Assembly (NCBI GenBank): GCA_048884965.1
Contig: JBHLQH010000004.1
Coordinates: 115,368-179,367 of the forward strand
DNA length: 64,000 nt
Reading direction: 5' to 3'
DNA from: Candidatus Thorarchaeota archaeon
GTDB taxonomy: Archaea; Asgardarchaeota; Thorarchaeia; Thorarchaeales; Thorarchaeaceae
The notes beneath the pieces were generated by a model. It was not told the origin of the DNA. It ran no database searches and was given only the letters and a program-made list of their open reading frames with translations. The translations under genes were made by a program, and so were the position numbers. Shown here one piece after another: positions 44,504 through 47,932 of the stretch. Numbering within the stretch: position 1 is the first letter of the stretch; every line of letters starts with the position of its first letter.

Positions 44504-45364
44504 ATGCCTTCTCGTGAAAGAGTAAGAAACCTCATCATGTTGATGCTAGATAGACATCCAATCCATGGATATGAGATTAGACGTCAACTTGTTCCCTTGG
44601 CTGGGGATATAGAAGTCACAACATTGTATCGATGGCTAAGAGAAATGGAAAAGGAAGGGCTTATTGAAAGTAAAGCAAAGAAAGGACCACATGGTCCTGA
44701 AAGAAAAGAATACAGAATGGGATCAAGAGGTGAGCGTCATCTTAGAGAGGTCCTACGTGATTCGATGAGGGTCATTTTACATTTCTATGACGAGTTCAGG
44801 CATTATTCCTTTGCGAAGAGCCTGAGTAACGCTACGAGTTCCGAACACGGTCAAGAATCAATTGAAGGAAGAATCATTGTAGCTATAGTCACGCCCTCTA
44901 TGGCAGACCAAGTCGATACCATGAAGCTCATCACCAATCGAGCTGGTGAGAATAGCATTCATGTTATGGGGGACCCCAAAAACCTAGTAGGTTTGGATAA
45001 GAAATTCATACTCATCGAAGGTAGCCCTTGGGACATTCCTTGCAAGAAGAATCACTACCATGAATACTGGATTCTCGGTATGCCTGCAAGAGAACTCCTC
45101 CCAAGGACTCTAGTCGAGAGCAAGCGCATCTTGGATAATGGCGGAACGGTAAGGATGCATGTTCCATTCGCCTTTTTTGATGAACCTGCTGAGCCAACTC
45201 TAGAATCGTTTCTAAGGCTAACAGCATCACATCTGTTTCCAGAGCTTGGTGTAGTAGAGGGACAAGAGGTCTGCGACCTGTTCGAGAAGATGTTTGAGGA
45301 CTTTGGGATTATCAAGTTTCACCCGGGGCATGTTCAATTCTGGGGCACAAATAGTTCAGAATGA
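44504..45364 (+). CDS. PadR-family regulator with a C-terminal methyltransferase-like domain
   Basis: PIHGYEI...TLYRWLREMEKEGLI...RKEY wHTH. C-terminal ESKRILDNGG resembles a class I MTase. Confidence 0.8.
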   Translation: MPSRERVRNLIMLMLDRHPIHGYEIRRQLVPLAGDIEVTTLYRWLREMEKEGLIESKAKKGPHGPERKEYRMGSRGERHLREVLRDSMRVILHFYDEFRHYSFAKSLSNATSSEHGQESIEGRIIVAIVTPSMADQVDTMKLITNRAGENSIHVMGDPKNLVGLDKKFILIEGSPWDIPCKKNHYHEYWILGMPARELLPRTLVESKRILDNGGTVRMHVPFAFFDEPAEPTLESFLRLTASHLFPELGVVEGQEVCDLFEKMFEDFGIIKFHPGHVQFWGTNSSE

Positions 45365-45395: not shown

Positions 45396-45410
45396 ACAAG
45401 AATTTATATA
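45396..45410 (+). promoter_or_regulatory. Archaeal BRE/TATA promoter of tRNA block 1
   Basis: TTTATATA at 45403-45410 after a purine-rich element, about 25 nt before the GGAG leader start. Confidence 0.7.
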
Positions 45411-45427
45411 GTTTCAAATCTCTTGCC

Positions 45428-45508
45428 GGGAGATTACTATGTGTTCAGTACCACAACCCGGTGAACAGATAGCCCAATATTGGGCAGAGCATATGTAGTC
45501 GTTTCTCT
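45428..45508 (+). ncRNA. Structured leader RNA of block 1 (unknown family)
   Basis: GATTAC-T-ATGTGTTC pairs with GAGCATAT-GTAGTC. Internal hairpins TACC/GGTG and GCCCA/TGGGC. GGGAGA/TTTCTC closes the fold. Confidence 0.55.
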
Positions 45509-45515
45509 AATTCTT

Positions 45516-45590
45516 GGGGCTGTGGTGTTAATGGTAACATATCTGCTTGGCTGGTAGACGATTGAGGTTCGATCCCTTACGGCTCCACCA
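45516..45590 (+). tRNA. tRNA-Ala(GGC)
   Basis: GGGGCTG/CGGCTCC with G3:U70, loop TT-GGC-TG, ACCA end. Confidence 0.85.
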
Positions 45591-45602
45591 ATTAGAGTAT
45601 GA

Positions 45603-45681
45603 GGGCATAGTGGCTGGAAGTAGTTAACGCGCTCGACTTGCAATCTTGAGTATGTAGGTGCAAATCCTACCGTGTCCACCA
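45603..45681 (+). tRNA. tRNA-Ala(UGC), degenerate (a Cys GCA reading is possible)
   Basis: G3:U70 and A73, irregular anticodon arm CTCGA-CTTGCAATC-TTGAG, T-loop TGCAAAT. Confidence 0.6.
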
Positions 45682-45689
45682 TCATTTGG

Positions 45690-45764
45690 GGTGAATGTGG
45701 TGAAAAGGTATCATAACAGTCCGTGAAGCTGGAGTTGAGAGTTCGATTCTCTTCATTCACACCA
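45690..45764 (+). tRNA. tRNA-His(GUG)
   Basis: GTGAATG/CATTCAC, encoded G-1, loop CC-GTG-AA, A73-CCA. Confidence 0.82.
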
Positions 45765-45769
45765 CCTAT

Positions 45770-45843
45770 GGGTATGTACGTTAACGGCAGACAATTCGAC
45801 TCCAGATCGTATTGTAGAGGTTCAATTCCTCTCATGCCCACCA
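45770..45843 (+). tRNA. tRNA-Trp(CCA), intronless
   Basis: GGGTATG/CATGCCC, loop CT-CCA-GA, ACCA end. Confidence 0.8.
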
Positions 45844-45844
45844 A

Positions 45845-45922
45845 GGGCCATTAGCATAGTTGCGGAATTGCACTCCTCTCATAAGGGAGGTTGCGTTGGT
45901 TCAACTCCAACATGGCCCACCA
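45845..45922 (+). tRNA. tRNA(CAU), Ile2-like or Met
   Basis: GGGCCAT/ATGGCCC, CTCCT-CTCATAA-GGGAG, ACCA end. Confidence 0.82.
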
Positions 45923-45925
45923 CTT

Positions 45926-46001
45926 GACTAGGTAGCATAATAGCGAGTGCCCTTCCCTTGGACGGAAGTTCATGCAGGTTCAAGTCCTGTCCTAGTCACC
46001 A
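45926..46001 (+). tRNA. tRNA-Pro(UGG)
   Basis: GACTAGG/CCTAGTC, CTTCC-CTTGGAC-GGAAG, ACCA end. Confidence 0.85.
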
Positions 46002-46004
46002 TCT

Positions 46005-46079
46005 GCTCCGTTGGTGTAGTGGAAATCACTCGATCCTTTCGAGGTTGGAACGGGGGTTCAATTCCCCCACGGAGCACCA
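46005..46079 (+). tRNA. tRNA-Glu(UUC)
   Basis: GCTCCGT/ACGGAGC, loop CT-TTC-GA, ACCA end. Confidence 0.9.
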
Positions 46080-46081
46080 CT

Positions 46082-46155
46082 GCGTAGTTGAGGTAAAGGT
46101 AACCCACGGGGCTTCCAACCCTGAGCTGGGAGTTCGAGTCTCCCACTGCGCACCA
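46082..46155 (+). tRNA. tRNA-Gly(UCC)
   Basis: GCGTAGT/ACTGCGC, loop CT-TCC-AA, ACCA end. Confidence 0.9.
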
Positions 46156-46157
46156 AT

Positions 46158-46233
46158 AGCCCTGTAGTGTAGACGGAAAGCACGTTGGACCTTGAATTCG
46201 ACGGTCTCGGTTCGAATCCGGGCGGGGCTACCA
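46158..46233 (+). tRNA. tRNA-Gln(UUG)
   Basis: AGCCCTG/CGGGGCT (A1-U72, archaeal type), loop CC-TTG-AA, ACCA end. Confidence 0.87.
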
Positions 46234-46234
46234 T

Positions 46235-46310
46235 CCCAGAGTGAATCTAAGGGCCAGGACATAGGTCTGTAAAGCCTGTGATGCCAGTTCGAGTCTGGCC
46301 TCTGGGACCA
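46235..46310 (+). tRNA. tRNA-Tyr(GUA)
   Basis: CCCAGAG/CTCTGGG (C1-G72), short variable loop, loop CT-GTA-AA, ACCA end. Confidence 0.85.
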
Positions 46311-46311
46311 T

Positions 46312-46386
46312 AGGAGCTTGGTCAAGCGGTAAGACAACTGTCTAACATACAGTCGATCGGTGGTTCGAATCCACCAGCTCCTACCA
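46312..46386 (+). tRNA. tRNA-Val(AAC)
   Basis: AGGAGCT/AGCTCCT, ACTGT-CTAACAT-ACAGT, perfect T-arm, ACCA end. Confidence 0.87.
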
Positions 46387-46403
46387 AATTATCCAAAATT
46401 CAT

Positions 46404-46418
46404 GTGAAAATTTATATA
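46404..46418 (+). promoter_or_regulatory. Archaeal BRE/TATA promoter of tRNA block 2
   Basis: GTGAAAA-TTTATATA, about 25 nt before the GGAG leader start. Confidence 0.75.
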
Positions 46419-46432
46419 CATTCATGAAAAGC

Positions 46433-46670
46433 ACTGGAGGATTACCAATGTTCAGAGAAAATAGTTTGATAGCGTCGTCAAGGACGACACTCGAACGCTC
46501 CACCCATGATAGTCCGAATAAGGACTAGGGTGAGTACACAATCTCTGGACATCACTGCTTCTTTCAAGTCTGCTGGTCTTCAGGGATAGTGGATTTTCTC
46601 TTTGTTGGAGGGCATGTTGCAAAGGAAGAGGGGGAGACCCTCTCTCGTCCCTTGCACTCATCCGTCCAGT
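46433..46670 (+). ncRNA. About 240-nt multibranch structured RNA (unknown family)
   Basis: Terminal stem ACTGGA-GGAT/ATCC-G-TCCAGT, 11-bp ATGTTCAGAGA/TCTCTGGACAT and several nested hairpins. Confidence 0.7.
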
Positions 46671-46676
46671 AAAGGT

Positions 46677-46753
46677 GGGCCAAGAGCACGGTTCGGTTGT
46701 GCAGGAGGCCTTTAACCTCCTAGACGCGGGTTCGAATCCCGCTTGGCTCTCCA
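46677..46753 (+). tRNA. tRNA-Lys(UUU)
   Basis: GGGCCAA/TTGGCTC, GGAGG-CCTTTAA-CCTCC, G8 and C33, TCCA end. Confidence 0.85.
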
Positions 46754-46771
46754 TGCATAGGTCAAAACAGT

Positions 46772-46908
46772 GGAGTGGTAGCTCAATCTGGCAAGAGCGA
46801 TAGCGTTTCACTGTCATTCATACCGTGATCCCTGAGAAGGGCATCGAGTGACAGTTTGCTTTTGGTTCATACCAAGAGATGCTGGTTCAAATCCAGCCCA
46901 CTCCGCCA
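46772..46908 (+). tRNA. tRNA(CAU, Met-like) with a ~60-nt hairpin insertion after the D-arm
   Basis: GGAGTGG/CCACTCC, canonical D- and T-arms, insert at about 46800-46859, TTTTGG-TTCATA-CCAAGA arm, GCCA end. Confidence 0.7.
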
Positions 46909-46913
46909 ACCTT

Positions 46914-46990
46914 GGCGCTGTAGCCAAACGGATCAAGGCACATCCCTTCGAAGGATGGAGGTCTCGGTTCAATTCCGAGCAGCGCCTCCA
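46914..46990 (+). tRNA. tRNA-Arg(UCG)
   Basis: GGCGCTG/CAGCGCC, CATCC-CTTCGAA-GGATG, TCCA end. Confidence 0.88.
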
Positions 46991-46997
46991 AAACCAT

Positions 46998-47074
46998 GAC
47001 CCTGTAGCTCAGTGGATAGGGCACCACGCTTCTAACGTGGCGGGACGTCGGTTCGAGTCCGACCAGGGTCGCCA
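46998..47074 (+). tRNA. tRNA-Arg(UCU)
   Basis: GACCCTG/CAGGGTC, CCACG-CTTCTAA-CGTGG, GCCA end. Confidence 0.9.
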
Positions 47075-47093
47075 AAAATGAAAGGTGAAAACA

Positions 47094-47330
47094 ATGTCGT
47101 ATGAACATCTCATCGGTACAGAAGCCGAAGCACAGGTAAAGGTGACAATCAGCGGAGCTCATAGTGATACTCCAAATCTCTTCGTTTGGGATAGAACAGA
47201 GCTGATTGCAAAGATTTGGCTCTACCCAGATGGTAGGATCAAATACCGAAGTTTTGTTCCTAAGACGACACAAGAGATTGAGATCCGAGGTCGACATCTG
47301 AAAGTGTATGACCCAAGGGAGAATCTCTAG
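47094..47330 (+). CDS. 78-aa hypothetical protein embedded in the tRNA array
   Basis: AGGTGA Shine-Dalgarno at 47083-47088, ATG at 47094, protein-like beta-rich composition. Confidence 0.7.
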   Translation: MSYEHLIGTEAEAQVKVTISGAHSDTPNLFVWDRTELIAKIWLYPDGRIKYRSFVPKTTQEIEIRGRHLKVYDPRENL

Positions 47331-47331
47331 A

Positions 47332-47456
47332 GCAAGCAGTGATCCTATGAATCATTGCCGAGGATTCACCAAACCTAGTATAGAACTTGCCTAAAGTGCG
47401 CGTGATGAGAAGAAGTCCTATCAGACGAAGCCTTGAACCTCACGCGCCTTTGGCAA
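47332..47456 (+). ncRNA. Structured spacer RNA(s) within block 2
   Basis: GCAGTGAT-CCTATGA-ATCATTGC hairpin, then long stem TTGCC-T-AAAG-T-GCGCGTGA / TCACGCGC-CTTT-GGCAA. Confidence 0.55.
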
Positions 47457-47463
47457 CACAAAT

Positions 47464-47590
47464 ACCGGTGTAGCACAGTTGGTAGTGCGCCTGCCTAGTA
47501 AGCAACGCACCAAAAGAGTGCGCCTGCCTTGTAAGCAGGTGGTCGAGAGTTCGAAGCTCTCCATCGGTTCCATTCCGAACACCGGTACCA
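47464..47590 (+). tRNA. tRNA-Thr with duplicated arms (anticodons AGU and UGU) and two CCA ends
   Basis: ACCGGTG pairs with CATCGGT (TCCA, 47572) or CACCGGT (ACCA, 47590). 21-nt direct repeat at 47484-47504 and 47517-47537. Confidence 0.7.
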
Positions 47591-47595
47591 TTTGA

Positions 47596-47670
47596 GTGGG
47601 GATACGCTAAGGGTAGACGACCAGACTGTTGATCTGGGATGTGTCGGTTCGAATCCGACTCCCTGCTCCA
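47596..47670 (+). tRNA. tRNA-Asn(GUU)
   Basis: GTGGGGA/TCCCTGC, CCAGA-CTGTTGA-TCTGG, TCCA end. Confidence 0.83.
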
Positions 47671-47675
47671 TCTTC

Positions 47676-47763
47676 GGTCGGATGGCTGAGTGGTTTAAGG
47701 CTCTGGTCTTGAAAATCAGCGCAGGTAAAACTGCCAGAGGTTCGAATCCTCTTCCGATCGCCA
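47676..47763 (+). tRNA. tRNA-Ser(UGA)
   Basis: GGTCGGA/TCCGATC, long variable arm GCAG/CTGC, G73-CCA. Confidence 0.92.
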
Positions 47764-47767
47764 TCAT

Positions 47768-47841
47768 GGGACACTAGTGTAATGGTAACATCTAAGCTTG
47801 TCGCGCTTTGGCTGGGGGTTCGATTCCCCCGTGTCTCGCCA
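47768..47841 (+). tRNA. tRNA-Asp(GUC)
   Basis: GGGACAC/GTGTCTC, loop TT-GTC-GC, GCCA end. Confidence 0.87.
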
Positions 47842-47844
47842 TAT

Positions 47845-47932
47845 GTCTGGGTGGCAGAGAGGTATAATGCACTAGTCTGCTAAGCTAGATTCCTTCTCGG
47901 AAACGCAAGTTCAAATCTTGCCCCAGACGCCA
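47845..47932 (+). tRNA. tRNA-Ser(GCU)
   Basis: GTCTGGG/CCCAGAC, loop CT-GCT-AA, variable arm TTCC/GGAA, GCCA end. Confidence 0.9.

Follow-up and report, generated by a model that had tools for sequence, protein, structure and literature searches.

A putative structured 5' leader at the head of an accessory tRNA array block in a probable Asgard archaeon

The window analyzed here, a stretch of 64,000 nucleotides, is part of contig C4 of an archaeal bin of 4.09 Mb in 99 contigs. It contains an array of about 20 tRNA genes at 45516-47932, which are all located on the + strand and are separated by spacers of 1-8 nt. The array is compact, and introns are absent from all but two of its tRNAs. There is a single long gap, between the end of a tRNA-Val gene at 46386 and the start of a tRNA-Lys gene at 46677, and this gap is the site of the element described here. 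The element lies on the same strand as every tRNA of the array; it is preceded by a promoter cassette of which block 1 has another copy, and it is followed by the first tRNA of the second block. It has no coding capacity, as befits a 5' leader. A gene for a PadR-family regulator is located directly upstream of the array (44504-45364). The coordinates of the features are compiled in Table 1.

The runs that carry the locus are sediment metagenomes. Gelsolin-domain matches number four in this genome versus zero in 14 control prokaryote genomes, and ORFs with this domain above the Pfam cut-off are found at C16:25000-25521, C2:70635-70844, and C49:2746-2922. Together with the RNase P and SRP RNAs, the tRNA set, and the sediment origin, these ORFs fit an Asgard archaeon, which is the probable source of the bin.

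A whole-genome tRNA scan revealed that contig C9 carries a second, small array (108216-108648), which consists of four tRNA-Leu genes and one tRNA-Phe gene. This region, G000:C9:108030-108648 and thus outside the window, encodes Leu-CAA, Leu-UAG, Leu-GAG, Leu-UAA, and Phe-GAA behind a TTTATAT promoter of its own. Leu and Phe are exactly the isotypes that the window array does not contain, and jointly the two arrays cover every amino acid but Cys and perhaps Ile. The other tRNAs of the genome include one tRNA-Sec and many with introns. An encoded CCA is no hallmark of the array, because it is likewise present in the dispersed tRNA genes of the host (36 of 38, judged from the ARAGORN ends). The array is distinguished from the host tRNAs by being nearly intron-free, by its tight packing, and by the consensus box TTTATATA versus YTTAAAW at host genes.

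Several members of the window array are unusual. In an odd tRNA-Thr gene at 47464-47590, 21 nt of the anticodon arm are present twice (47484-47504 and 47517-47537, 95% identical), and in the population of run X2 a 47497 A>T change converts the first anticodon from AGU to UGU, in addition to a 47475 A>C change. A tRNA with a CAU anticodon at 46772-46905 carries an insert of about 60 nt (Rfam tRNA, 42.3 bits) and is miscalled by ARAGORN as tRNA-Gln with a 40-nt intron. An ORF of 81 aa (P0001; window 47085-47463) is located inside the array; it has no Pfam match, a partial homolog with 64% identity is encoded in the same-genus genome G003 at a site that is not beside tRNAs, and its matches in IMG/VR are weak and none of them adjoins tRNAs. 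The spacer of about 130 nt between this ORF and the next tRNA is rich in hairpins. When arrays were sought at the matching loci of the genus via synteny of the PadR and SBP neighbors, none was present there, and a search for encoding contigs returned just the contig of one run (SRR30758813) and no other strain.

Table 1. Features of the array heads of the window and of the element
Feature	Position	Strand	Basis or remark
L1, block 1 promoter and short leader (~84 nt)	45401-45515	+	same TATA cassette
Promoter cassette of block 2, AATTTATATACATTCA	46409-46424	+	88% identical to 45401-45416 before block 1
Start motif GATTACCAATGTTCAG, predicted transcript 5' end	46440-46456	+	motif-to-TATA spacing
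5' domain, 105 nt	46448-46552	+	predicted to fold alone at -43.9 kcal/mol
Central hairpin (fold I)	46566-46596	+	MFE of 46441-46676
X'', degenerate repeat of the start motif, GUCUUCAGGGAUA	46576-46588	+	duplex scan; alternative partner of 46542-46552
Long, near-perfect 3' hairpin with a GGAGA-type apical loop	46599-46675	+	ends 1 nt before tRNA-Lys
tRNA-Lys(UUU), first tRNA of block 2	46677-46753	+	ARAGORN; Rfam tRNA, 50.5 bits

The heads of the arrays are named L1 (window 45432-45515), L2 (the element), and L3 (C9:108058-108215). The TATA box of the second block is located at 46411-46418, and TTTATAT..TTCA also precedes the C9 array. A motif GAWTAC..ATGT..CAG is present in L1, L2, and L3, and begins 29, 29, and 26 nt, respectively, past the first base of the TATA element. 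It reads GATTAC at both window promoters and GAATAC on C9, and the copy in L1 (GATTACTATGTGTTCAG) is at 45432-45448. The combination of TATA box and motif is confined to the three array heads in the 4.09 Mb, bar an unrelated match with a CTTAAA box on C5.

Archaeal TATA boxes are centered near -26/-27, and 17 of 23 host tRNA genes start 32-38 nt past the first base of a TATA-like box. Because of this spacing and the textbook position of the box, a start of L2 transcription near 46441, about 30 nt past the first TATA base, is more likely than one at 46433. The initial annotation had let the RNA begin 22-25 nt past the TATA box; position 46433 is indeed 22 nt after its first base, but the later start is the likelier one. 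It had also proposed a closing stem 46433-46442/46660-46670, which does form in silico, but a start near 46441 would turn most of the 5' strand of this outer stem into promoter DNA, barring read-through from block 1. There is no T-run between block 1 and the L2 promoter, and therefore read-through that covers 46387-46440 is possible.

The element folds far better than expected by chance. An almost fully foldable RNA of about 240 nt at the head of the second block had been described in the initial annotation, and this was borne out: for 46433-46670 the predicted energy is -93.3 kcal/mol versus -70.1 ± 5.0 for dinucleotide shuffles (z -4.66), and for 46441-46676 it is -92.8 versus -67.2 ± 5.2 (z -4.90), in both cases better than all 200 shuffles. 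The reverse strand reaches only -78.5 (z -3.28), 14 kcal/mol short of the + strand, and this energy gap favors an RNA on the strand of the tRNAs. The predicted 5' domain is composed of an 11-bp closing helix (46448-46458/46542-46552), hairpin A with the apical stem 46474-46479/46483-46488, and hairpin B (46497-46535). The 11-bp helix with the enclosed pairings GTCGTC/GACGAC and CACCC-TAGTCC/GGACTA-GGGTG had already been noted, as had CACTG/TAGTG and the long TGCAA...TTGCA hairpin, and all of them, like the outer closing stem, were recovered in one or the other of two predicted folds of nearly equal energy. The central hairpin is followed by the U-rich tract AUUUUCUCUUUGUU at 46593-46606. The 3' hairpin is contained in the MFE and the centroid structures of all constructs that were folded, and in an RNA that starts at 46441 the 3' end is predicted to pair with 46599-46610, which yields a terminal hairpin of 77 nt. 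The leaders of the three array heads are all better than shuffles, with z values of -3.25 (L1), -5.49, and -3.04. A search for a credible ORF in L2 had a negative result: the + strand contains just two ORFs of 34 and 37 aa, of which the former was discounted because its start precedes the predicted transcript start, and the latter runs into tRNA-Lys.

The element does not belong to a known RNA family. A search of 46387-46676 against Rfam yielded nothing at the gathering thresholds, and at E<=10 the only two matches were to a miRNA family and to Ocean-VII, far below their cut-offs. This agrees with the initial annotation, in which neither a known family nor an RNase P, SRP, or 5S signature had been recognized. 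The archaeal RNase P RNA (RF00373) had no match in the element at E<=10, and the RNase P RNA of the genome is encoded at C16:41010-41342 (157 bits); archaeal SRP RNA (RF01857) had no match here either, and its best match in the genome is at C50:11887-12197 (84.5 bits). 5S RNA was likewise rejected. A tRNA or a decayed tRNA was also dismissed: RF00005 has no match at E<=10 inside the element, ARAGORN with introns and a lowered threshold finds none, and local alignments to the tRNAs of both arrays gave p>=0.34. GOLLD, ROOL, and other large ornate RNAs had no covariance-model match. The initial annotation had considered a processing ribozyme or a tRNA sensor, and neither suggestion found support. 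None of the self-cleaving ribozymes (hammerhead, twister, pistol, hatchet, HDV-like) has an Rfam match at E<=10, and inspection revealed no hammerhead-like CUGAUGA...GAAA core around the three-way junction. The T-box (RF00230) had no match, and the UGGA at 46546-46549 is UGA in the C9 paralog, so that the paralogs do not share a UGGN element. C/D sRNAs were rejected because the element contains no CUGA and the AUGAUAG of hairpin B is Watson-Crick paired; for C/D and H/ACA RNAs alike, there is no Rfam snoRNA or sRNA match. A K-turn signature was not found in the element with Rfam or by inspection. An RNA excised at a bulge-helix-bulge (BHB) motif was dismissed, the outer stem having one 1-nt bulge and the 11-bp helix none, as was a small protein gene, given that there is no credible ORF.

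The leader of the C9 array, L3, has a length of about 160 nt and is a paralog of L2 in the TATA cassette, the start motif, and the 5' domain. The L3 domain comprises 104 nt (C9:108065-108168) compared to 105 nt in L2, and each of the two is predicted to fold alone into the same topology, a closing helix around two hairpins. In the hand-made alignment, 16 of 22 base pairs are identical, the other six carry changes in both partners, and no pair is broken, at a domain identity of about 62% (69/112); a U.G pair of L2 is deleted on both strands in L3. The collinear 7-mers TAGCGTC and GACACTC are common to L2 and L3 at offsets that differ by at most 5 nt (P=0.0024 in shuffles for two such collinear 7-mers). 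In addition, each leader contains the start motif in reverse complement, at offsets of 102 (L2) and 103 (L3); the probability that this 8-mer occurs anywhere in a shuffled L3 leader is 0.0019. L1 retains only the motif and a short complement, and it is devoid of hairpins A and B. L2 and L3 were aligned by eye, with the structure as a guide, and all tests on them are post hoc. Automated methods did not link the two leaders: genome-wide blastn and nhmmer searches gave no match between them, a single-sequence covariance model of the domain (R2) scored L3 with 10.2 bits (E=3.2), their local alignment had p>=0.26, and MAFFT misaligns them. Only the 5' 105 nt of L2 are common to L3, and the 3' half of L2 is unique. 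The paralogy of L2 and L3, as judged from this one hand-aligned pair, provides the first evidence of a conserved structure.

Both leaders would also be capable of an alternative pairing. The 5' start motif is denoted X, the 3' strand of the closing helix (46542-46552) X', and a downstream repeat of the motif X''. A duplex scan of L2 yielded X as the best partner of X' (-15.3 kcal/mol), followed by a segment at 46657 (-10.2) and X'' (-9.7). The two best partners of X' in L3 are X'' (-12.2 kcal/mol) and X (-10.3). X'' is located 19-24 nt past X' in L2 and L3, and U-rich tracts follow downstream in both, the one named above in L2 and UUUUUU in L3. Two near-isoenergetic global folds are predicted for L2, with a gap of about 1 kcal/mol, and for L3 the gap is about 3. 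The leader is thus possibly bistable, with a switch in pairing between X and X''. The layout of alternative pairing plus U-rich tract is reminiscent of attenuators; we know of no established case of RNA-controlled termination in archaea, and therefore this likeness is treated as a lead only.

Homologs of the leader were sought in several collections. BLAST of 46400-46680 in 60 relatives, a full-length covariance model (R1) in 85 family genomes, and blastn against 50,697 phage records detected no homolog, and BLAST of 45400-46700 in the 85 family genomes returned only tRNA matches and one other array. A pattern of promoter plus motif had 13 matches among GTDB representatives and 28 in JGI metagenomes, all of which were judged to be due to chance; the sole match accompanied by tRNAs (L105) is inside a phage coding gene. 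The hairpin A pattern had three chance matches in IMG/VR, all within coding regions, and an over-degenerate version of the motif pattern gave hundreds of chance matches in 400 genomes of the phylum, with none of 30 fetched loci near tRNAs. The C9 array and its leader were absent from five same-genus genomes in which they were sought. The homologs in Asgard and sediment metagenomes to which the initial annotation had looked were therefore not found in family genomes, GTDB representatives, or JGI metagenomes. Its proposal of a new class of tRNA-array RNAs stands insofar as the element is unrecognized, structured, non-coding, tied to an array, and has a paralog, but no homolog was detected in other genomes or collections.

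The one other array belongs to a genome of the same genus, G006 (C338, 2582 bp), and is a different array of nine tRNAs, namely, Ala (two), Ile (two), Pro, Glu (two), and Gln (two). It contains a Cys/His-rich ORF of about 40 aa. By reading of the sequence, its flanking ORFs are serine-recombinase-like and HNH-like, respectively, which suggests that such arrays may travel on mobile elements. Its leader has a loosely similar start, GATTAT..ATG, but shows no further relation to L2 and no notable structure (z -0.58). On the data searched, the arrays look like variable accessory elements with a leader module that is specific for the species. Within the population, three more sediment runs from the same study yielded contigs with the locus. 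The haplotype of run X3 has three differences in L2: 46463 A>G in an unpaired junction, and 46493 G>A and 46497 G>A, each of which turns a G.U into an A-U pair. The fold energy of the haplotype is unchanged. The three SNPs are thus all neutral for the structure and agree with it; the agreement is not significant, as about two thirds of random transitions would be neutral by our own estimate. With three SNPs in 35 nt of the leader, their density exceeds that of the flanking tRNAs.

Taken together, the element is real, previously unannotated, and beyond chance, and it is an orphan; it would belong to the structured spacers that are transcribed as part of tRNA operons. We favor, with moderate confidence, the reading that it acts in cis, as a structured 5' leader that belongs to accessory tRNA operons and is cut off by RNase P. 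It would constitute the 5' external transcribed spacer of the accessory array's second transcription unit, an RNA of about 236 nt that extends from near 46441 to the RNase P cleavage site expected at the 5' end of tRNA-Lys. In its first ~105 nt, a three-way-junction domain, the start motif would form the closing helix around the two hairpins. This domain may represent an array-head module, a paralog of which heads the Leu/Phe array and a motif-only version of which heads block 1. Its role in cis could be to protect the polycistronic pre-tRNA at its 5' end or to organize this end, or else to gate the expression of the array. The 3' strand of the closing helix could pair with the 5' motif or with its downstream repeat at near-equal energy. 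From the general action of RNase P, a release of the leader as a discrete stable RNA would be expected. A limit of the leader reading is that the conserved motif at the start might serve in the DNA, as an operator or initiator, and not in the RNA.

Three other explanations have to be weighed against the leader. An inert spacer would have arisen when the cassette was duplicated during assembly of the array, and its folding and its helices would be leftovers of common descent and of a hairpin-rich sequence. Such a history would fit the absence of the orphan from six same-genus and 85 same-family genomes in spite of the existence of other arrays, the much shorter leader of block 1, the higher SNP density of the X3 leader compared to the flanking tRNAs, and the similarity of L2 and L3, which is below the reach of standard tools. 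Nevertheless, we regard it as unlikely, because at an identity of about 62% none of the 22 pairs is broken and six have changed on both sides, the X/X'/X'' layout is kept in L2 and L3 at similar spacing, and z values of -3 to -5.5 across three leaders would be unusual for junk. The comparison with the paralog also bears on the idea of a stable trans-acting RNA of a new kind, e.g., a scaffold, ribozyme, tRNA sensor, or sponge, with its own promoter and a 3' end made by RNase P. Functional RNAs derived from tRNA transcripts have precedents (3'ETS-leuZ, MALAT1/mascRNA), and the size, the compact multi-domain fold, the very low z-score, the own promoter, the predicted 3' processing site, and the conservation of the 5' domain in L3 would all suit such an RNA. 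However, conservation across species was found in none of the collections searched, signatures of a ribozyme, K-turn, C/D, H/ACA, or T-box RNA are missing, and a unique 3' half with just 105 nt common to the paralog suits a leader better than an RNA gene, so that a trans-acting RNA appears distinctly improbable.

Alternatively, the motif and its inverted copy about 95 bp downstream might act at the DNA level, as an operator or initiator for a repressor that silences the arrays, e.g., the PadR-type neighbor. The fixed distance of the motif to the TATA box, its restriction to array promoters, the PadR-family gene immediately upstream, and the precedent of a regulated bacterial array (PMC8421152, PMC10272220) speak in favor of this possibility. 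But it leaves hairpins A and B, the compensatory changes, and the energy gap in favor of the + strand unexplained, the U.G pair in the helix of L2 is a mismatch at the DNA level, and a DNA signal would be compatible with a role of the RNA rather than exclude it. As a full explanation it is very improbable in our judgment. A more far-reaching version of the leader reading, an archaeal riboregulator in which the choice of X', made via a protein, a tRNA, or the state of translation, decides about transcription through the array, its processing, or its retention, is a long shot.

Several known systems resemble the proposed leader in part. 3'ETS-leuZ of Escherichia coli is an sRNA sponge that is derived from a transcribed spacer of a tRNA operon. 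Common to both would be a non-tRNA RNA that is co-transcribed with tRNAs and is liberated by tRNA-processing nucleases, which for L2 is a prediction, and that does not require family-wide conservation. In contrast, L2 is a 5' leader, archaeal, far larger at about 236 nt, and multi-domain, and the sponge activity belongs to 3'ETS-leuZ. T-boxes, which to our knowledge occur in bacteria only, are likewise long structured leaders with mutually exclusive helices and a link to tRNA. However, L2 precedes tRNAs and not aaRS genes, and no specifier or UGGN is conserved between the paralogs. In the trn array of Anabaena, the operator repeats of the repressor TrcR overlap the start site of the array (PMC8421152, PMC10272220). 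It is similar to the present case in being an extra compact array beside dispersed housekeeping tRNAs, with conserved elements over the array start, but these are DNA operator repeats, compared to a 105-nt RNA domain and an archaeal host here. A structured leader RNA is not described in these two papers, and the word "leader" occurs zero times in PMC8421152. GOLLD and ROOL, two Rfam families, are ornate RNAs that are often found beside tRNA arrays of phages or prophages (see also bioRxiv 10.1101/2024.12.08.627333). They share with L2 that they are large, ornate, unexplained RNAs in or beside tRNA clusters, but they have lengths of about 500-800 nt versus 240 nt, and L2 is encoded on an archaeal chromosome with no sign of a phage.

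Accessory tRNA arrays of archaea have so far been described only for Halobacteria and Methanobacteria (PMC6333295), and the tRNA genes of Asgard archaea are otherwise known as scattered and intron-rich (bioRxiv 10.64898/2026.10.13.758758). The array described here is compact and nearly intron-free, and it is equipped with consensus promoters and with a structured leader module that recurs in the genome. If the element is inert, it is merely a well-folding orphan spacer. If it is regulatory, it would be among the very few candidate cis-regulatory RNAs in archaea, and the riboregulator, if true, would represent a class of RNAs that regulate the supply of tRNAs in the archaeal lineage to which eukaryotes are most closely related. 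If the module controls or stabilizes the transcripts of the array, it would offer a handle on how an Asgard archaeon turns on a second set of tRNAs.
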